From the UHGV virus genome UHGV-0391210: DNA of 38,844 bases. One strand, given 5' to 3'. The position numbers and the translations under genes were made by a program. This DNA comes from a virus. Positions 1 through 8,829 of the stretch are shown here, one piece after another. The notes beneath the pieces are model-generated. The model had not been told where the DNA came from. It was given only the letters and a program-made list of their open reading frames with translations, and ran no database searches. Every line of letters begins with the position of its first letter. The first letter of the stretch is position 1.

Positions 1-34
1 CTTTTCTGATGATTTCTTTCTCTTTTTCGCTCAT
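1..34 (-). CDS. Partial CDS (N-terminus only, MSEKEKEIIRK...), runs off the left edge of the window
   Basis: ATG is the reverse complement of 32-34, preceded by a strong RBS AAGGAGG (reverse complement of 38-44). Only 11 codons are visible. Confidence 0.35.
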   Translation of the reverse strand, partial: MSEKEKEIIRK

Positions 35-44
35 GTGTACCTCC

Positions 45-809
45 TTATGCTGCGTTCTGTTCAATTACTGGATGGATTCCGTTTTTCTTTAGTTCCTCGT
101 ATAAAAACAGGCGTCCTTTCTGCGTCCACTGCGTCTGCATTGTTACATCCGGATCTCCGTTGCTCCTTGTAATATCGATTGTTTTACTATGTACATAGCC
201 GCAATTCTGATACTTGGAGTAGAGCACCCACTGTTTGTTGACTTTGTATTGGATTTTCATATCATTCAAAATCCGGTTAAATCGCACCGCTGACATTCCA
301 TAGTCTTTGGCGATCTGCGTAGTCGCTACCAACGATTTTGACTCCAGAATATGGTCAACATAGTTCGCTTTTGGTGTCATTTCCTCGATCAATTTCTGCT
401 GTTCCACAACCTGCCCTCCGAGGAATTTGCACCTGTCTTTTAGGCTGTCAATGGTCTTTCCTGCCATCTTTAAGGCTCTTGCCATTACCTGTTCTGGTGT
501 GTTCCATGCTTTCTCGAGGTCAATTAATCTTTGTCTGCATTCTCTCCCTTTGTCAGTTCTACTCATGAGGCAGATGTGCTTTGCCATGTCAGTTGAGACT
601 TGGTAGTCTTGCACTTCCTTTTCACCACCATACTGATTGCTATGTACCTTTAGGTACGCACCATTAAAATCCTCATTCTCAATAAATCCTTGCGAATTCT
701 TTTCGAACCATTCAGAAAATCTTTTTCTGATTCCAAGAGCCTTATGAAGATCTCTGGCTGATACGGTTGGTTCGCTACCGTCTGTGTTGATTGCAAATAA
801 TTCATTCAA
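45..809 (-). CDS. Phage antirepressor (Ant/KilAC-type, N-terminal Bro-N/AntA-like region)
   Basis: 254-aa ORF. The N-terminal '[16 protein letters not shown]' and the central/C-terminal regions resemble phage antirepressor KilAC-domain proteins. It lies within a lysogeny-control-like neighbourhood. Confidence 0.65.
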
Positions 810-937
810 TGCCTTTTACCTCCTGTTCTTTTATTGCCATCGCAACCTCCATGGCGGGATTGCTTTCTTTTGGTTTATCTCCTATACTGTAAATACAGGG
901 CACTGCCATGCCTGAGTATCACGAAAGGAGCGATTTT

Positions 938-1165
938 ATGAGACGTTGTAATTCGCCATTTAACGGCAATCGCTATGTGCTTAATAAAAACACTGGTGAA
1001 ATCCATGATTTAGACCGCGAAACCTCGTGCTGCCGCATAAATGATATAAAGTCCGAACATATCTTTAATTGCAGTTCCTATGAGGAAGCTGTTGTTTTTT
1101 CTTCCATGCTTGACATCAGAAGAAACGGATGCGCTCACTGCATGCCAGAGAAAAACAACGGATAA
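938..1165 (+). CDS. Small Cys/His-rich protein (putative zinc-binding) of unknown function
   Basis: ATG at 938 is preceded by RBS GAAAGGAG (922-929). It carries an NTGEIH...C...NGCAHC motif that resembles the C-terminal motif of the DUF4236 protein at 2782-3807. Confidence 0.45.
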   Translation: MRRCNSPFNGNRYVLNKNTGEIHDLDRETSCCRINDIKSEHIFNCSSYEEAVVFSSMLDIRRNGCAHCMPEKNNG

Positions 1166-1590
1166 CCATTAAGAGCTGCTTCTTTTAAATGAGGTAGCTC
1201 TTTTTCAGGCATCTCCTCTTCAAGAAGTTCTGCAAATGCTTCAGGAGTTTTTTTGACTTCGATCAAGCCAAATACCATATTAGAAAACTCTTTCTCTCTA
1301 GTAATGGATTTCAATACATCGAATTTTTTTATCTTTCTATCCTTATTTTCTTCGTCAAGACCTATAAACTCATCGATATATTTTTCGATACGTTCAACCC
1401 CCTGAATTTCTTCGCGCAACTCTTCTGGTTGTTCAAGAATTTTTTTTGCAGTATTCCTGATTAAATTCTCCGTATTTTCCTTCTGAATTTTGATGTCATC
1501 TTCACACTTTTTGATGCGATACAGCAAGCAATCCCATTTTCGTCTTGAAACCCACATCTTTCTCACCTCGCTTTCTTTTTCCCCCGTCAT
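1135..1590 (-). CDS. Hypothetical acidic coiled-coil protein
   Basis: 151-aa ORF, charged and helical in composition. It is divergent from the XRE gene across an operator-rich intergenic region. Confidence 0.5.
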   Translation of the reverse strand: MTGEKESEVRKMWVSRRKWDCLLYRIKKCEDDIKIQKENTENLIRNTAKKILEQPEELREEIQGVERIEKYIDEFIGLDEENKDRKIKKFDVLKSITREKEFSNMVFGLIEVKKTPEAFAELLEEEMPEKELPHLKEAALNGYPLFFSGMQ

Positions 1591-1634
1591 GCCGATAGGT
1601 CAGCGTTTTTTGTTTTGGTTTGTGTTGTTGTTTT

Positions 1635-1650
1635 CTTGTTGATGAACAAA
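1635..1650. promoter_or_regulatory. Operator-like inverted repeat CTTGTT-GATG-AACAAA
   Basis: The TTGTT-N4-AACAA dyad is seen directly. It is one of three similar sites in the divergent intergenic region 1591-1763. Confidence 0.45.
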
Positions 1651-1707
1651 TCATAACTCGTTTTATTTTGTTTGTCAATAAGATTTTTAAAAAAATTAAA
1701 TATTTTT

Positions 1708-1723
1708 CTTGTTGACTAACAAG
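1708..1723. promoter_or_regulatory. Operator: perfect 16-bp palindrome CTTGTTGACTAACAAG overlapping the -35 element
   Basis: Perfect 6-bp arms with a 4-bp spacer. It overlaps TTGACT (1712-1717). Confidence 0.55.
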
Positions 1724-1740
1724 TATAATAATGATATACT
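1712..1740 (+). promoter_or_regulatory. Sigma-70-type promoter: -35 TTGACT, 17-bp spacer, extended -10 TGaTATACT
   Basis: TTGACT at 1712-1717. TG at 1732-1733 and TATACT at 1735-1740. RBS AAAGGAGGA at 1750-1758 and a TTG start at 1764. Confidence 0.6.
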
Positions 1741-1763
1741 GATTTCAGAAAGGAGGAAGCCTT

Positions 1764-2147
1764 TTGGAATTGAATATAGGAGAAAGAATTGAAATCTTAA
1801 GAAAAGACTTAAGTATGTCCAGGAGAGTTTTTGGAGAAAGGCTTGGCGTCAGTGAAAGCGTTATTGTTAATATAGAATACGATCGCTTGAAACGCCCAGA
1901 TCAAAAAGAATCCTTATATAAGTTGATTTGTAAAGAGTTCAATGTGAACGAAGAATGGTTAAGAACCGGAAACGGTGAAATGTTTATCCAATTAACAAGA
2001 GACCAGTTGATTACAGACTTTGCTGCTGATCTTATAATGGAAAATGATACATTTAAAAAAAGATTAGTAGAAGCTCTTGCAAAGCTGGATGAAAGTGAAT
2101 GGGATGTCCTAGAAAAGCTCGCAGAGAGCTTAATAAAAAAAGACTAG
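1764..2147 (+). CDS. XRE-family HTH transcriptional regulator (phage CI/Cro-like repressor)
   Basis: 127 aa with an N-terminal HTH ('RLGVSESVIVNIE') and an 'EEWLRTGNGEMF' motif typical of phage XRE regulators. TTG start with a strong RBS. Confidence 0.8.
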   Translation: MELNIGERIEILRKDLSMSRRVFGERLGVSESVIVNIEYDRLKRPDQKESLYKLICKEFNVNEEWLRTGNGEMFIQLTRDQLITDFAADLIMENDTFKKRLVEALAKLDESEWDVLEKLAESLIKKD

Positions 2148-2173
2148 GGTTTCCCCTAGCCTAAAAGATTTTT
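2144..2173 (+). terminator. Putative rho-independent terminator (CTAGGG-TTT-CCCTAG hairpin, then a T-run)
   Basis: Inverted repeat 2144-2159, T5 at 2169-2173. Confidence 0.35.
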
Positions 2174-2340
2174 GCAGAATCGGTATATAAGTTCCAACAT
2201 CTCAATGTTGTTGGACTTGTTTACCAATTCGATAATAAGTTTTTTGTAGTCCATTCGCGATCCCCCTAACTGCAAAAACACTTGTTCGAAATCCCTGAAC
2301 ATATAATACTATCTCAGGGGACAAAAATCAATATTTTGTT

Positions 2341-2353
2341 CGAACATTTGTTC
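2341..2353. promoter_or_regulatory. Cheo-box-like LexA site CGAAC-ATTT-GTTC
   Basis: Matches the Gram-positive SOS-box core GAAC-N4-GTTC with the 5' C. It lies in a 300-bp ORF-poor region next to a candidate minus-strand promoter (TTGATT-17-TATTAT, reverse complement of 2303-2331). Confidence 0.45.
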
Positions 2354-2450
2354 TGTTATTTTTTGGTACTTATGTACCTCTCTATTAAGTTAACAATCTA
2401 AAATCGGGAAACTTACGCGAAAATGGACAATCGTCCCATATCTGGGACAC

Positions 2451-2648
2451 TTATTGATATGGAGAGTCGATAAGGTCAGAAATTCGGACTTTTAAGCCCT
2501 TGGCAAGCAATTCCAGCGTGTCAGCTGTCGGCGATATTTTACCATTTGCAATGCGGTTAATCGTTGATTTTGATATTCCAGTTGCAATGGATACTTGCCG
2601 AGTAGATAGGTTTTTATCGTGCATGATCTTATCGAGTAGTATTTTCAT
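2451..2648 (-). CDS. Small XRE-family HTH protein (Cro-like)
   Basis: 65 aa. 'LSTRQVSIATGISKSTINRIANGK' is a classic HTH_XRE. Confidence 0.8.
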   Translation of the reverse strand: MKILLDKIMHDKNLSTRQVSIATGISKSTINRIANGKISPTADTLELLAKGLKVRISDLIDSPYQ

Positions 2649-2668
2649 AGTGTAATTATTGTAGTATA

Positions 2669-2682
2669 TTCCAAATCTGGAA
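2669..2682. promoter_or_regulatory. Operator-like palindrome TTCCAAATCTGGAA nested in GTAGT...ACTAC
   Basis: 5-bp arms with a 4-bp spacer, flanked by outer GTAGT/ACTAC (2661-2688). It sits in the divergent promoter region between 2648 and 2782. Confidence 0.4.
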
Positions 2683-2781
2683 ACTACAGGTAAATAATGG
2701 TAATGATATAACCGCTTCGGCGTTTATATATAAATTGCGGGAAAAGTACAGGAGAGAAAAAGAAGGTGAATTAAGAAAGGA

Positions 2782-3807
2782 ATGGGATTTCGTTTCAGAA
2801 AAAGTTTTAAAATTGCTCCCGGTATAAAGTTTAATCTTAACAAGAATAGCCATAGCTTCACGTTTGGTGGAAAAGGAATTCACTACACTGTTAATTCTGA
2901 TGGAAAACGGACAAAAAGCTTTGGAATTCCAGGGAGCGGACTGTATTACACAGAAACCAAAAACGGAAAAACTAAAGAAAACAAGGGGAAAACAATGAGT
3001 AAAGCATCGAATAAGAGTGGTGGTGGATGCCTTAGTGTTATTGCATTGCTGATAATGCTCTCTATTGCACTTGTAGTGTATTCTTTTTTATGGATACCAG
3101 CGATACCGGCATTGATATACTGTGTTGTATCCAAAAAATTCCGGCCATACAGGATCAGGAATACTGTGATATGCTCGATTGTGTTTGCAACATCTCTAAT
3201 TATCTTTATATGGCTTGGATCTCCGTCTGAATTGAACTCTATATCTGCAGAGTGGGGGAAAGAAGAATTTAATATCGGAGATGTAACGGAGGTGAAAATT
3301 ACTCCAAGCCCGTCGGACGCAAAAATCGAAAGCTTGGAATTATCCGAAAATAATATCGCAGATCTCGAATATAAGGACGGAAAAGCCGTCATTACATTTA
3401 CGGGTTCTGGGAATGCATCACTATTTTTTACGGCGAATGGAGAAATTAAAAGCAGTTCGAAAACTATTACCGTTATAGATCCGGAAGAAGAAGCGAGAAT
3501 AAAAGCCGAGGAAGAAGAACGGATTAGGTTGGAACAGGAAGCTCAAGCAGCTGAACAGGCGCGTATCGAGCAAGAACAGGCTGCGGCTGCTGAACAGGAA
3601 AGGATTGCACAAGAGCAAGCTGCAGCGCAAGCAGCACAAGAGCAGGCTGCACAGCAAAGCCAAGATGACCCCATCGTGTATATAACAAACACTGGGGCAA
3701 AGTATCATAGCGCTGGATGCAGAACTTTGAAATCTAAGATAGAAAAACATCTGTCTGAGGTACGCGGAGTTTATGAACCGTGCGGCATTTGCCACCCACC
3801 ACAATAA
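2782..3807 (+). CDS. DUF4236-type membrane protein with E/Q/A-rich coiled coil and a C-terminal Cys/His cluster
   Basis: The N-terminus 'MGFRFRKSFKIAPGIKFNLNKNSHSFTFGGKG' matches the DUF4236 signature. Two or three hydrophobic TM segments follow, then an EQAAA low-complexity repeat. The C-terminus reads 'KYHSAGC...PCGIC'. Confidence 0.7.
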   Translation: MGFRFRKSFKIAPGIKFNLNKNSHSFTFGGKGIHYTVNSDGKRTKSFGIPGSGLYYTETKNGKTKENKGKTMSKASNKSGGGCLSVIALLIMLSIALVVYSFLWIPAIPALIYCVVSKKFRPYRIRNTVICSIVFATSLIIFIWLGSPSELNSISAEWGKEEFNIGDVTEVKITPSPSDAKIESLELSENNIADLEYKDGKAVITFTGSGNASLFFTANGEIKSSSKTITVIDPEEEARIKAEEEERIRLEQEAQAAEQARIEQEQAAAAEQERIAQEQAAAQAAQEQAAQQSQDDPIVYITNTGAKYHSAGCRTLKSKIEKHLSEVRGVYEPCGICHPPQ

Positions 3808-3980
3808 AATAAAAACCGCCCCTGCGCCAACAGAGACGGTATACATACCCGAAGATATGCGATTAAAATCCATGAATATTGTATCATCTTCGGAAACAGC
3901 TTGCAAGCGGAACGTTTGTTTTGCGCGGCTGTTATTTTTATACCTATTTTTAAATACTATTTACAAAGGAGTGATACAAG

Positions 3981-5378
3981 ATGCAAGAGAAAATATTGAG
4001 ATGTGCCATCTATATCCGCGTCTCCACATTTGAGCAGAGCGTACATGGCAAGTCTCTGCAAGCACAGAAAGAATGCCTAAAGCAATATGCAGCGGATCAT
4101 AATATGGCTGTAGTCGGAATTTATGCGGACGAGGGAAAGACTGCCAGAAAAGAACTGAAGAAAAGAAAAGCCATCCATGCTCTTGTAGAGGATGTAAAAA
4201 AGGACAGAATCGATGTAATACTATTTTGGAGACTGGATAGATGGTTCCGAAACCTGTCGGATTTTTACAAAGTGCAGGACGTGCTAGATGCGCATGGAGT
4301 GCGTTGGATATCCGTATCTGAGCCGGGAATCAACATGGAGACACGGGATGGACGTTTGCAGTTAAACGTTGTACTCTCAATCGGCCAAAACGAAGTAGAT
4401 ACCACATCGGAGCGTATTAAATTTGTCAACGAATCATCTATACGGCAGAAAAAGCTAATATTTGGTGATGCAAACATGCCTTTTGGTTATAAAACAGGTG
4501 TTGTAGATGGAAAGAAATGCATGGTTAAAGATTCGGAAACAGAACACATGGTGGAAGATTTTTTTGAATATTTTAGAAATCATAACTCCAAGAAGGGCGC
4601 TATCCGGTACATGCAGGAAACCTATGGAATTGATTTTAGCTATGGCATGTTACGGACGATGTTATCCAGCGAATTTTATAAAGGGACGTACAGAGGATAC
4701 CCTTATTGTCCAGCATACCTGTCAGAAAAAGAATGGGATGAGATGCAAACTATATCGAAAAGAAATATTAAAAACACGCCGTCTGGTAGAATATACCTAT
4801 TTACAGGTTTGATGCGCTGTCCTGTGTGCGGACAGAAATTAGTTGGCACCGGATGCTCATCAATTATCAACCGTAAAACCGGAGAAAAAAGAACATACTG
4901 CTACTACCGTTGCAACAGAGCGCTTATTGATCATATTTGCACGTATAGGCATAGGGTAAGCCAGAACCTTATCGAAAAATATCTGCTCGAAAATCTTGAA
5001 AGAGAGTACGAAAAGTATAAGGTCCGCACCAACCAGATCAGCGAAGAGTTAAAAAAGCAAAAGAAAGCGAAAGATCCGAAAAAGCTTAGAAAAGAAATGG
5101 AACGATTAAATTTGTTATTTCAAAAGGGGCGGATCTCTTTTGAATATTACGATACGGAATACAACCGGCTAGAAGAAGAATACGTGCACTCTTCCAACCC
5201 ATGCCAACAAAAAGAAGAAGCTCGCAATACACGATACATAGAAGAATTGCTGCAAACTGATTTTCGGCAGATGTACAACTCTCTTTTGCTCGAAAACAGG
5301 CGTTCTTTTTGGCGATCCACAATACAGGAGATTTACCTAAATGATGACAATACGATTAAAGCTGTAGATTTTTTATAA
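3981..5378 (+). CDS. Large serine recombinase (integrase)
   Basis: 465 aa. The N-terminal resolvase domain 'AIYIRVSTFEQ' contains the catalytic Ser. A recombinase domain and a Cys-rich zinc ribbon (CPVCGQKL...CYYRC) follow, as in phage and ICE serine integrases. Confidence 0.9.
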   Translation: MQEKILRCAIYIRVSTFEQSVHGKSLQAQKECLKQYAADHNMAVVGIYADEGKTARKELKKRKAIHALVEDVKKDRIDVILFWRLDRWFRNLSDFYKVQDVLDAHGVRWISVSEPGINMETRDGRLQLNVVLSIGQNEVDTTSERIKFVNESSIRQKKLIFGDANMPFGYKTGVVDGKKCMVKDSETEHMVEDFFEYFRNHNSKKGAIRYMQETYGIDFSYGMLRTMLSSEFYKGTYRGYPYCPAYLSEKEWDEMQTISKRNIKNTPSGRIYLFTGLMRCPVCGQKLVGTGCSSIINRKTGEKRTYCYYRCNRALIDHICTYRHRVSQNLIEKYLLENLEREYEKYKVRTNQISEELKKQKKAKDPKKLRKEMERLNLLFQKGRISFEYYDTEYNRLEEEYVHSSNPCQQKEEARNTRYIEELLQTDFRQMYNSLLLENRRSFWRSTIQEIYLNDDNTIKAVDFL

Positions 5379-5382
5379 TCTG

Positions 5383-5432
5383 TTTTGTACTAAGTGTTTA
5401 GCCCCATTTGGGGCAGTATAATTAGTACAAAA
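5383..5432. other. 50-bp dyad-symmetric att-like site (TTTTGTACTAA ... GCCCCATTTGGGGC ... TTAGTACAAAA)
   Basis: Perfect 11-bp outer inverted arms and a central 14-bp palindrome share one centre (5407/5408, TT), 5 bp after the recombinase stop. This architecture is typical of serine-integrase attP sites. It could also act as a terminator hairpin. Confidence 0.5.
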
Positions 5433-5690
5433 TAAATGATACAATATTCAGGACGGCAGATCCATCCGTCCGACACTCATATATGCCGCCCGTAAAAAGG
5501 TGTGCATCATTTCGGTTGTCAGGATCATCCCTTCTGGCAGCCGGAACTTGAATGTATTACCTGGTATCTCCAAAAACTCTTGGTAAAGCAAAAATGTATC
5601 GTAAGATTCGTATATTTGATATTCCATATCTATCCCCTCCATTTATTCCATTATATCATAAAAATATTTTAAAAACTTTTCATTTTCCTA

Positions 5691-5719
5691 TTGACTTTAC
5701 GCCTTATAAGACGTATAAT
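5691..5719 (+). promoter_or_regulatory. Near-consensus sigma-70 promoter TTGACT-17-TATAAT
   Basis: TTGACT at 5691-5696, a 17-bp spacer, then TATAAT at 5714-5719. RBS AAAGGAGA and ATG at 5754 follow. Confidence 0.7.
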
Positions 5720-5753
5720 AAGGCCATAAGATAAAGCAAAGGAGATACGAAAA

Positions 5754-6179
5754 ATGAAAAAATACAACTTATCAAAAATTATGAAAAGAGCATGGGAACT
5801 GGTAAAGAAAACATCCTTCGGAATCTCCGAAGCTTTAAAGAAAGCATGGAAAGAAGCGAAAATGGGAGGAACAAAAATGACAGGAACAGAGAAACAGATC
5901 AACTTCGCAAACGATCTGATCAAAAAAATGAACGAGCAGTTTGATGCACTGATCGCAGAGTGCAAGGCAAAATATCCGGAAAGCGTGAGCATGTGGGAAT
6001 CTCGCAAGGAAGAATACAACAGAATCCTTTCCGAATCTGATGCCGGACTCGTAATTGATCTGCTGAAGTGGAACAATGAAACAGCTTACATGAAATACTA
6101 CCAGAGACTTATGTTTGATCTTAAACACGAACGCAATACAATGTGCAGAAGAATTTTAAGTGAAGTTTACGGAAAATAA
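5754..6179 (+). CDS. Hypothetical protein (moron cassette gene 1)
   Basis: 141 aa. Repeated KxAWxxxKK motifs near the N-terminus. No family recognised. Confidence 0.55.
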   Translation: MKKYNLSKIMKRAWELVKKTSFGISEALKKAWKEAKMGGTKMTGTEKQINFANDLIKKMNEQFDALIAECKAKYPESVSMWESRKEEYNRILSESDAGLVIDLLKWNNETAYMKYYQRLMFDLKHERNTMCRRILSEVYGK

Positions 6180-6257
6180 TTACAAGAAAGACATTGTAGC
6201 AAGACGCAAGTGATGTATATGCTGACCTATCGGCTACGGGGAGAAAGAGGCAGAAAA

Positions 6258-6551
6258 ATGAAAATCAATGGAATCGGAACAATTAAAAAAGAAGAAGCAA
6301 TGAAGATTTTAACGAGAGAAGGAAGGGAGGCAGTTAAATCTGGGGAAATTACAACTGAAGAGCTTGGACGCATGTATAAACTGGAAATGGTTAAGAAATT
6401 ATCTAAAATCGGAAAATACGGTTGTACGTTTGCCGAAAATTATAATAGAGTGCCGCAAGAAATCGCCGATAAGTTATCACCGGAAGAGATTGCCGAATTA
6501 GTAGATAGTTTTTATGATTGCTATAGTGATGGGAGAAAGAGGGGTGAATAG
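6258..6551 (+). CDS. Hypothetical protein (moron cassette gene 2)
   Basis: ATG at 6258 follows RBS GGGGAGAAAGAGG. 97 aa with no recognisable domain. The stop overlaps the start of the next gene (TAGaATG). Confidence 0.5.
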   Translation: MKINGIGTIKKEEAMKILTREGREAVKSGEITTEELGRMYKLEMVKKLSKIGKYGCTFAENYNRVPQEIADKLSPEEIAELVDSFYDCYSDGRKRGE

Positions 6552-6552
6552 A

Positions 6553-6756
6553 ATGAGGGAACATTTAAGCAGCGTGCAAAGATTAAGAAAGGCTACAGGG
6601 CTAACGCAACAAGAACTTGCCAATAAGACTGGTATTAACATTCGGCAGATACAGAAATACGAGTACGGAGAGTACGATACCGGAAAAATGATGCTCAGGA
6701 ACGCAATTGCTCTGGCAGATGCGCTGGAATGCGATGTACGGGAATTGATCAGATAA
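6553..6756 (+). CDS. Small HTH XRE-family DNA-binding protein
   Basis: 67 aa from ATG 6553. 'LTQQELANKTGINIRQIQKYE' is an HTH. It is translationally coupled to the upstream ORF. Confidence 0.7.
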   Translation: MREHLSSVQRLRKATGLTQQELANKTGINIRQIQKYEYGEYDTGKMMLRNAIALADALECDVRELIR

Positions 6757-6980: not shown

Positions 6981-7955
6981 TTAGAACAACTGGAATCTAT
7001 CGATTGCCTGTCCGAACGCTCCAGCATATCCGTCCTGTCCGTTTCCGGTCTCATTATCATACTGCCAATCCCAGTATGTTCCATTTACCGGACTGACACG
7101 GTACTGCGCTTTCTGGTAGCCATATTTTGCCGCATAATCCGCTGGAGTATTGTAGTACACCTCGATTGCATCGATTGGCTGTCCTGTACCTGCATAGCCG
7201 TTGTTGTGGTCATTCCAGTTACATCCGGTCACATAAGGCAGCCACCCTCTGCCGATTACGTGAACTCTATACTTTACGGATCCTTTGTCTACCTTAATAG
7301 CTACATCCGTGATGCGCTTGCCCTGAATCCCGGCAAAATCCGTGAGATTCCGCACAAACGGCAAGATGCGTCCGTCCTCCAGTTTGACGGCGTAAGTAAA
7401 TACTACTTCCGGCTGTCTCTGTGCAGCTTGAGCCTGCGCCTGTCCACCAGACACATAAGTTGGTGGCGTGACATTACCACCCATGTACTCCTTGATTCGC
7501 TTGATAAAATATGATTTCGTAGCTTCTCTGCCGCCGTGAATCTCTACAGATCTGTGAGGGCATGATGTGGCATACACTTCCTGATGGAGTCTGATTGTGC
7601 TTGTGCTTGGTGTGATTCCATACTCCTTGCACTTCTGCGCCGCCAACTGCAATGCTTTTTCCTCGTTTGCTTTAAATACATCCAGATCACCCATACTCTG
7701 GCATGTTTCGATGCCGAGATAGTTTAAGTTTCCATTTGTGTCCCCGCAATGCCATGCACAATTCATATCATCCTCTGCCTGTAAGATGCCATCCTGTGCT
7801 ACATAATAGTGCGCAAATCCATTTTCAAGCGGATGTGTCTGTAACCAATTTCTGTAAAATGCTGCATTGGCGTTCTTACTTCCAGCGTCATTATGGATAA
7901 AGATTCCCGCTGGATTTCTTCCTCTGTTTCCTGCTACTCCACGACAAATACTCAT
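6981..7955 (-). CDS. Endolysin: N-acetylmuramoyl-L-alanine amidase (Amidase_2/PGRP type) with C-terminal ChW cell-wall-binding repeats
   Basis: Start at the ATG that is the reverse complement of 7953-7955, with RBS AAAGGAGAAAAT. The 'FAHYYVAQDGILQ...AWHCG...NLNYLGIE' motif matches the amidase-2 signature. The C-terminus has repeated W/Y-rich ChW-like units. Confidence 0.8.
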   Translation of the reverse strand: MSICRGVAGNRGRNPAGIFIHNDAGSKNANAAFYRNWLQTHPLENGFAHYYVAQDGILQAEDDMNCAWHCGDTNGNLNYLGIETCQSMGDLDVFKANEEKALQLAAQKCKEYGITPSTSTIRLHQEVYATSCPHRSVEIHGGREATKSYFIKRIKEYMGGNVTPPTYVSGGQAQAQAAQRQPEVVFTYAVKLEDGRILPFVRNLTDFAGIQGKRITDVAIKVDKGSVKYRVHVIGRGWLPYVTGCNWNDHNNGYAGTGQPIDAIEVYYNTPADYAAKYGYQKAQYRVSPVNGTYWDWQYDNETGNGQDGYAGAFGQAIDRFQLF

Positions 7956-7985
7956 ATTTTCTCCTTTCTGTGCACAATCGCACAA

Positions 7986-8298: not shown

Positions 8299-8752
8299 TT
8301 ACCCGCCATCCTGCTCCTGTGATTTATTTGTTAAAACATCCAGTGCTTTTTTTAACGCTTCCGGATATTTCACGCCCATAATTCCAACATTTTCCAAAAT
8401 CGAGATACCCTCATTTGCTATAAATGCCAGTACTACGGCTGTGCGGATGTAGTCTACGCCGAGAGTGACATCCAGCCGATATGCAATAAGTACGATAAGT
8501 AGGGATACCCCTTTTCTGCACAGGCCTTTCCATGCAGAGTAGCTGCTTAGCGCACCGTTCTCCGATTTGTTGCTCTTTTTCCAAAAGGCAGCGATCAGCA
8601 ATCCAAGAACAAAGTCTGCACCCATAAAAATGAGTAATGTAGTCAAGTCCTCAGACCATCCTCCGATCAGGTTTACGAAACCTCCTGCAATAGCTCCGAA
8701 TACCATGCATAAAAACGCTTTTACATTTGCCAACTGCTCCATTTTCTTCATA
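8299..8752 (-). CDS. Holin (phage_holin_4/TcdE-like) with a dual-start motif MKKM
   Basis: Several TM segments ('AFLCMVFGAIAGGFVNLIGGW', 'LLIFMGADFVLGLLIAAFW'). RBS GGAAAGTGAGGA lies before an ATG-AAG-AAA-ATG dual start. It sits just upstream of the lysin. Confidence 0.75.
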
Positions 8753-8829
8753 TCCTCACTTTCCTTTCTGATTTTAAAGTATAAAAATAAGACCATTACG
8801 GTCTTGCTCTGATCTCCATATTCGCTCCT

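Follow-up and report, generated by a model that had tools for sequence, protein, structure and literature searches.

A 50-bp dyad beside a large serine integrase gene is very probably the attP of a temperate siphovirus of Mediterraneibacter gnavus

A 50-bp site with dyad symmetry (positions 5383-5432) lies between a large serine integrase gene and a small, convergently oriented open reading frame (ORF) in the virus genome UHGV-0391210, and we asked what this site is for. The whole stretch of DNA that we analysed, here called the window, is 38,844 nucleotides (nt) long. An earlier note on this DNA had described 11-bp arms and a central palindrome, both centred on a TT dinucleotide just after the stop codon of the recombinase gene, a description with which our direct reading agrees. 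It had proposed that the dyad was a candidate attP of the adjacent recombinase, an attL/attR hybrid between two tandem elements, or simply a terminator. On the evidence of the related sequences compared below, we are highly confident that the site serves as attP for the large serine integrase encoded by the phage itself.

By direct reading, the two outer arms are exact reverse complements of each other and share with the inner palindrome (GCCCCATTTGGGGC) a common centre between T5407 and T5408, 29 nt past the integrase stop (Table 1). The 50-bp site as a whole begins 5 nt past that stop. The segments joining arm to core, GTGTTTA and AGTATAA, are not complementary, and the 24-nt half-sites agree with each other at 19 of 24 positions. 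A repeat finder extended the dyad to 39-nt arms (5368-5406 and 5409-5447) that are 74% complementary and have exactly 2 nt between them. When every centre in the 38.8-kb window was scored, 5407/5408 proved to be the best dyad, with 19 of 25 complementary pairs within 25 nt on either side. Such symmetry is by itself moderately unusual: of 200 dinucleotide-preserving shuffles made from the whole window, only one reached a score of 19, and perfect 11-nt inverted repeats whose spacer is at most 40 nt, of which the window has one, are expected 0.55 times per shuffle. The position of the site is more telling. Across about 45 related loci, the distance between the end of the integrase gene and the start of the core hardly varies (an offset of 31-32 in most, with a maximum of 39), which argues that the site is not random.

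We collected the DNA around relatives of the integrase from IMG/VR and compared the sequence past the integrase stop, taking as close relatives those with integrases 88-97% identical to that of the window. Eight contigs (L025, L026, L027, L029, L030, L032, L048 and L058) carry an intact attP with phage DNA on both sides, running on into the small ORF. The same holds for Ruminococcus phage RG-TP1, the closest deposited phage, which covers 71% of 24.6 kb at 89% identity. RG-TP1 was obtained by antibiotic induction of Mediterraneibacter gnavus DB_YZ_1, and the same integrase, dyad and small ORF are contiguous mid-way in its 36-kb record.

Two hybrid forms of the site were also found. attL, present in seven viral contigs (L021, L023, L028, L033, L035, L036 and L038), is laid out as left arm, TT and host TGGAGCCGACAAAACG...; it reads as the window does, or nearly so, to ...GCCCCATTTGG and continues as host AGCCGACAAAACGATGACTGCTG..., the phage side ending in ...TTTTGTACTAAGTGTTTAGCCCCATTTGG and the host side starting with AGCCGACAAAACGATGACTGCTGTACTTTCTGG.... 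This continuation is 100% identical to a host protein from residue 79 onward. attR, recovered in 10 contigs by a search with the right arm, is laid out as host ...GTCACAGGA, TT and right arm. Here host ...GAACTCGTCACAGGA is followed by TTTGG(G/A)GCAGTATAATTAGTACAAAATAAATG..., with the switch falling between ...GGCATTGAACTGGAACTCGTCACAGGA on the host side and TTTGG(G/A)GCAGTATAATTAGTACAAAATAAATGATAC... on the phage side, and one attR (L074) matches the window exactly from A5406 onward. Both hybrids occur on one contig in the pairs L066 with L038 (36.0 kb core-to-core) and L079 with L035 (36.8 kb), which have a TT core, and in L204 with L168 (35.8 kb), which has an AA core. These prophages of 35.8-36.8 kb hold all gene modules of the window between one attR and one attL. 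The attR of L079 (at about position 250, in IMGVR_UViG_3300045988_028606) reads GGATTAGGAGC in place of GGATTTGGAGC, a T-to-A change at the base right after the core dinucleotide that is due either to polymorphism or to an error in sequencing.

The empty attB can be predicted by fusing the host part of attR with that of attL. The predicted 26-mer, GTCAC(A/G)GGATTTGGAGCCGACAAAAC, is present in 70 contigs from human-gut metagenomes, where its flanks are those on the host sides of attR and attL; the earlier note had suggested looking for just such a related attB with a TT core. This attB, GTCACAGGA-TT-TGGAGCCGACAAAAC (ATTGAACTGGAGCTCGTCACAGGATTTGGAGCCGACAAAACGATGACTGC over 50 bp), lies within codons 76-84 of a host lipoprotein gene. 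attP and attB are identical at 18 of 50 positions and have ATTTGG as their only contiguous common run, and the half-sites of attB are alike at 6 of 24 positions versus 19 of 24 for those of attP. Homology to the window ends at the dyad centre in more than 30 independent integrated copies. All four forms of the site can be read in public sequence, the junctions lie at the dyad centre, and the genome closes on itself. The finding of attL, attR and empty attB with a shared TT core in relatives and metagenomes bears out the earlier proposal of a candidate attP.

Among the relatives, the arm motif (T/C)TTGTACTAA is kept by most of the attL and attP sites belonging to integrases 58-97% identical to that of the window, and also beside an integrase that is 35% identical. 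Some relatives have different outer arms (L165, L166, L168 and L182-L185). The core palindrome shows some variation: in RG-TP1 and L032 the right side alone is changed, to GGAGC, and L029 has a symmetric GCTCC/GGAGC.

Past the holin gene (Table 1), a long series of minus-strand ORFs runs up to the window end, including tail fibre, tape measure, portal and terminase genes recognised by homology to RG-TP1. The standard map of a temperate siphovirus is attL-integrase-regulators...replication-packaging-head-tail-lysis-attR, and on its minus strand the window reads as this map closed into a circle and cut open at an arbitrary point, with the lysis cassette meeting the integrase at the dyad. The end and start of the window are directly contiguous in relatives. 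A 520-nt probe spanning end and start matched at 97.8% over 317 nt with one gap in L029, L023 and L038, and it aligned over its full length across the join in L021 and L035. Because the window ends abut seamlessly in relatives, this comparison identifies the window as one complete, unintegrated, circularly permuted genome of a Mediterraneibacter (Ruminococcus) gnavus temperate siphovirus related to RG-TP1; an unintegrated or circularly permuted phage genome was among the readings of the earlier note. A terminal direct repeat was looked for in the window, and none was found. A 100-codon open frame on the plus strand spans the join 38844/1, and judged by sequence the window is a complete genome linearised inside a gene. 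Its annotation is settled as a complete, unintegrated temperate phage genome with its attP at 5383-5432 and a crossover that we infer at 5407-5408.

Of the competing explanations, the one that survives best, although it is very unlikely, is that the dyad serves primarily to terminate transcription, as a hairpin that ends the integrase mRNA and possibly works in both directions. Folded as RNA, the 70-nt region forms a long hairpin of -25.3 kcal/mol on the plus strand (z = -5.4) and -22.2 kcal/mol on the minus strand (z = -5.35), and the dyad sits between the convergent integrase gene and 64-aa ORF. Yet the stem is followed by no U-tract on either strand (the plus strand continues AAAAUAAAUGAUAC and the minus strand CAGAUUAUAAAAAAUC, with the T and A runs in the wrong order), and a terminator scan of the window called none at the dyad. 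RG-TP1, L032 and other relatives have an uncompensated break in the G-C core stem (GGGGC to GGAGC), and the arms are kept as sequence, with no compensatory changes, in most relatives (integrases 35-97% identical). The hairpin is moreover split between attL and attR in the prophage, which is the state of the integrase gene for most of its life, so the simple terminator of the earlier note fails both on the missing U-tract and on the destroyed hairpin. The relative MT836489 (L027) carries, immediately past the site, a canonical terminator (CCCCTCAGAG...CTCCGAGGGGATTTTTATT), indicating that the terminator job is done elsewhere. In the circular form, the dyad may have a minor, secondary pausing role.

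We give almost no credence to the hybrid of tandem elements, in which an attL/attR-type or leftover junction would separate an integrase/regulator element (1-5407) from a siphovirus (5408 onward). Phage genes do lie on either side, and gene orientation switches at the site. However, both half-sites are of phage type, with perfect outer arms, whereas a true attL or attR has one host half-site unlike the arms. The left module (antirepressor, helix-turn-helix (HTH) regulator, DUF4236 protein and integrase) and the right module (lysis, tail, head, terminase and replication) are the two ends of one prophage, as the whole prophages described above confirm. The layout matches the standard siphovirus map, and the window end joins the start seamlessly, so that both sides form one circle. 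An intact attP would likewise be present if the same phage had integrated twice in tandem, but a window of exactly one unit with abutting ends would then be a coincidence. Finally, a chance palindrome, or an operator of another DNA-binding protein with no role in integration, would accord with the one shuffle that equalled the dyad score and with the perfect 11-nt inverted repeats found somewhere in 35% of shuffled 38.8-kb sequences, but it is practically dismissed by the near-constant spacing to the integrase stop and by homology breaks placed exactly at the dyad centre.

We also sought the position of strand exchange. attR is host-type through 5405 (G instead of C) and phage-identical from A5406, and the canonical attL is phage-type through G5411, which is why attP and attB share ATTTGG. 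Two other loci, L034 and L046, depart from the phage sequence right after ...CCCCATT, and the AA-type attL of L168 departs right after ...CTCCAAA; together with attR, these junctions narrow the exchange to 5406-5408. Across loci, TT or AA is the only invariant pair, its neighbours varying (A/G before, T/C after). Since T5407-T5408 is also the symmetry centre, we favour it as the probable crossover dinucleotide.

The attP/attB pair is already known as a published computational prediction, and as a kind of site it is ordinary. In supplementary file 3 ('Fig. 1B tree details') of Durrant et al. 2022 (Nat Biotechnol 41:488; PMC10083194), the entry cluster321 / Firmicutes / dsDNA Phage / NZ_NIHO01000002.1:114402-115799 has an integrase 97.2% identical to that of the window over the 399 residues printed. 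Its 106-nt attP matches window positions 5356-5461 exactly, in reverse complement, and its attB is identical to the one that we reconstructed from attL and attR. The entry was predicted from an integrated copy, whereas the window is the free, circularly permuted form, and the row names neither the crossover dinucleotide nor the target gene (PMC10083194). A 2026 survey of R. gnavus phages, in which RG-TP1 falls in cluster D, did not identify integration sites (PMC13435783). The attP, attB, attL and attR sequences reported above apply to RG-TP1 and to its relatives within the public data that we searched, and they permit tests of true lysogeny by polymerase chain reaction. The integrase, its 50-bp attP and the compact attB would also make a candidate orthogonal recombination tool.

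The integrase has Pfam Resolvase (residues 9-147, E 2.9e-26) and Zn_ribbon_recom (273-339) domains, both above their cut-offs, and between them a Recombinase domain (186-261) whose 20.8 bits fall slightly below the 21.1-bit gathering cut-off. It matches the PHROG 95 integrase with an E value of 4.9e-95. Its N-terminal part, ...CAIYIRVSTFEQ..., contains YIRVSTFEQ, in which S15 is the presumed nucleophile. Residues ~340-440 are rich in charged, heptad-like sequence, and the sole family match there is a spurious one to GvpG. A search of PDB sequences with the whole integrase returned relatives by the catalytic domain only (3guv, TP901-1 3bvp and, weakly, Bxb1-type 9iu2), and because these matches are confined to the N-terminal catalytic domain, DNA contacts could not be assigned from structure. 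In the RG-TP1 record, the integrase (gp42; L001 3871-5475) is labelled 'hypothetical protein' and starts ~70 codons further upstream, overlapping the DUF4236 gene. This N-terminal extension is probably an annotation artefact, since the Resolvase domain starts at residue 9 of the shorter form.

How the site would work can be sketched from the integrase of the Listeria innocua (LI) prophage. According to the LI integrase-attP structure and model, the recombinase domain lies on the inner and the zinc-ribbon domain on the outer part of each half-site, attP and attB dimers synapse by coiled-coil contacts, cuts staggered by 2 nt are made in all four strands, one half turns by 180 degrees and religation occurs only if the overhangs pair (PMC3783163). 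The attP of the window resembles the A118/LI attP, which is likewise pseudo-palindromic over ~50 bp, with 25-bp half-sites in LI and a central dinucleotide, and whose LI outer motif TTTAGTATC, at about positions 16-24, resembles the window's TTAGTAC at 14-20 (Rutherford et al. 2013, PMC3783163). Both integrases are small (452 aa in LI, 465 aa in the window). The C-terminal 313 aa of the window integrase show no similarity to the LI integrase detectable with phmmer, and the target genes differ.

By analogy, an integrase dimer would bind the two near-identical 24-bp half-sites of attP, the integrase-proximal outer arm serving as a probable zinc-ribbon-domain contact (PMC3783163), and a second dimer would bind attB. 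The synapsed tetramer would cut four strands at TT 5407-5408, rotate and religate, leaving a prophage of ~36-39 kb between two hybrid sites. attL would then comprise the integrase, the left arm, TT and host TGGAGCC..., and attR would comprise host ...CACAGGA, TT, the right arm and the lysis genes. The non-palindromic TT would set the orientation of the prophage, and excision would, as elsewhere in the family, need a separate directionality factor, none of which was identified in the window. The chemistry in this scheme (S15 as nucleophile, a 2-nt stagger and subunit rotation) and the contacts between domains and site are proposed by likeness to the serine-integrase family.

Several observations weigh against reading the site as an attP that works in this manner. 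The window's own lysogen was not seen: the junctions come from close relatives, albeit with arms identical to those of the window, and a scan of a genome collection with one genome per species returned no integrase above 72% identity and no host junction of the window itself. Sequence comparison limits the crossover only to A5406-T5408, and the preference for TT over AT would rest on the symmetry centre and the alternation of TT and AA. The cluster321 integrase is absent from Durrant's table of experimentally characterised recombinases (PMC10083194), and the C-terminal 313 aa of the window integrase have no match detectable with phmmer to any solved integrase in the PDB. Nor is the outer motif evident in attB 5 bp closer to the centre, where the LI model would have it. 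When TTAGTACAAAA was slid along the attB half-sites, 4 of 11 positions matched at shift 5 in both, and the best matches, 6 of 11, came at shift -1 in B-L and shift 10 in B-R; attB is coding sequence, which makes its conservation uninformative here.

We next turn to the gene that the phage enters. Judged by its sequence, the attB gene is that of an NMT1/SsuA-like substrate-binding lipoprotein of an ATP-binding cassette transporter. Its product is a 343-aa lipoprotein with a signal peptide and lipobox Cys that matches the Pfam NMT1/THI5-like family with an E value of 4e-26, and an NCBIfam SsuA-family model weakly, below that model's cut-off. The intact gene was taken from contigs other than L087, whose copy has a frameshift that is probably an assembly error. 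The crossover lies within the codon of Phe79 (F79) in ...ELVTGFGADKTM..., and the same codon of the orthologous gene is used by integrases 58-79% identical, in Dorea, Sporofaciens, Muricomes, Eubacterium and Lachnospiraceae genomes. Read in frame, attR gives ...VTGFGAV-stop, a product truncated after ~80 codons, and in attL there is no start codon that a signal peptide follows. For this reason, lysogeny is expected to inactivate the gene, and the prediction is that lysogens lose the NMT1/SsuA-like substrate-binding protein. A118-type phages likewise insert inside a host ORF, comK. The arrangement is also like that of SPbeta SprA with spsM and of other serine-integrase prophages that split an ORF, in that attB lies within a coding sequence that is interrupted and that precise excision would restore (PMC5499854). 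The present case differs from SPbeta and spsM in showing no sign of developmentally regulated excision or of the transporter gene being important to the host.

The relatives differ in the direction in which they enter this gene. In 24 integrated loci with a TT core (in the integrase sense), the 3' part of the transporter gene stands next to the integrase in sense orientation, and L028, whose core was not called automatically, has the same orientation. In all six loci with an AA core (L003, L004, L008, L009, L013 and L168), the 5' part of the same gene stands there, inverted, and the junction falls in the same Phe codon. An intact attP of the AA type, GCGCTCCA-AA-CGGGG, was found through the L003 integrase in L165 and L166, with different arms. 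The AA-type attL of L168 and the attR of L204 are on one contig (IMGVR_UViG_2854065680_000001), and the latter consists of the reverse-complemented 3' part of the gene, AA and the right arm. A scan for AA-type attR with the exact right arm returned only the two attP contigs, and it was a looser pattern that recovered the attR; three of the five hits of this pattern (L203, L205 and L206) were rejected as unrelated chance matches. On a neighbour-joining tree of integrases, AA types occur in at least four places among TT types, a count that is provisional as the tree has no bootstrap.

The viral contigs L152-L155, matched by the pattern TTGTACTAANNNNNTAGCYCCAAA, were the only hits of a scan for an AA-core attP with TTGTACTAA arms and were rejected, their cores being TT when read on the other strand, beside an integrase 35% identical to that of the window. 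They carry (for example at L152 6390-6445) an almost perfect 52-bp palindromic attP-like site, TTGTTGTACTAACATCATAGCTCCA-TT-TGGAGCTATGTTATTAGTACAACAA, with the same arm motif and core, that adjoins this distant integrase and has canonical terminators on both flanks.

We lean towards the view that attP polarity has flipped repeatedly in nature, by inversion of the central dinucleotide only (TT to AA in the integrase sense), within a family of Lachnospiraceae-phage integrases aimed at the same Gly-Phe-Gly codons of the same transporter gene. It is, to about the same degree, rather probable that inverting TT to AA alone suffices for the opposite prophage orientation, as the arms are almost perfectly symmetric; this near-perfect symmetry suggests that attP orientation can evolve freely. 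Flips might arise when antiparallel synapses are, on rare occasions, ligated and the mismatches then segregate. For Bxb1 and phiC31, nothing but the non-palindromic central dinucleotide that attP and attB have in common sets the polarity of integration (Ghosh, Kim & Hatfull 2003 and Smith, Till & Smith 2004, as cited in PMC3783163). The natural TT-core and AA-core relatives of the window follow the same rule, inserting oppositely in the same codon. Unlike those studies, which used engineered sites in assays and Actinobacteria hosts, the evidence here comes from sequence comparison. The Bxb1 integrase (9iu2) resembles that of the window with an E value of 6e-4 over the N-terminal domain only and is otherwise kin at the family level. 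If the flips are real, they are a natural, recurrent counterpart of the engineered 'polarity switch' experiments with Bxb1 and phiC31. A shallow literature search found no description of natural attP polarity flips, and it is this natural illustration of the central-dinucleotide rule that is perhaps worth a short follow-up, the only part of the present analysis that is.

Not every integrated relative was at the canonical attB. In L046 (11395-11635; also in L180), the left arm of the phage type represented by L044, L045 and L048 is followed, past the TT, by the start region of an oppositely oriented GGCT/AIG2-like gene, MKETYYFAYGSNMN..., yet L044 and L045, of the same phage type, are at the canonical attB. 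The L046 flank CCGGCAAAATG is similar to the canonical CCGACAAAACG but lies 5 bp nearer the core, and from its sequence this junction is an apparent secondary attB. L034 (11392-11444) leaves the left arm right after TT into DNA other than the usual transporter gene.

Table 1. Coordinates of the predicted attP, its parts and the surrounding genes in the window.
Feature	Position	Strand	Remarks
attP (predicted)	5383..5432	none	two 24-bp half-sites around TT; intact in 8 close relatives; split into attL/attR in >17 contigs; inside the 106-nt cluster321 attP
Outer arm of integrase-proximal half-site (P), TTTTGTACTAA	5383..5393	none	positions 14-24 from centre
Core palindrome GCCCC-ATTT-GGGGC	5401..5414	none	direct reading
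Central (probable crossover) dinucleotide TT	5407..5408	none	junction comparison and symmetry centre
Outer arm of integrase-distal half-site (P'), TTAGTACAAAA	5422..5432	none	kept beside host DNA in 10 attR contigs
AntA/KilAC antirepressor	45-809	-	
HTH regulator	1764-2147	+	
DUF4236 protein	2782-3807	+	
Large serine integrase, 465 aa	3981..5378	+	TAA stop 5376-5378; Pfam, PHROG 95
64-aa ORF	5448-5642	-	
Plus-strand cassette (region 5691-6756)	ORFs 5754-6179, 6210-6551; HTH protein 6514-6756	+	first two ORFs without informative family match
Amidase endolysin	6981-7985	-	
Holin	8299-8796	-	

Two further features of the window lie outside the site (Table 1). The plus-strand cassette between attP and the endolysin gene is preceded by a near-consensus promoter, TTGACT-17-TATAAT (5691-5719). 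It is found in some relatives and substituted in others, and has the look of a moron or accessory module placed at the end of the prophage.

The second-best dyad of the window (18 of 25 pairs, centred on 1658/1659; TTGATGAACAAA...TTTGTTTGTCAA in region 1634-1730) lies in the divergent intergenic region between a minus-strand ORF (1135-1590) and the HTH regulator gene. A palindrome nearby, CTTGTTGACTAACAAG (1709-1724), overlaps a TTGACT -35 box, and the two are likely operators of the lysis-lysogeny switch.

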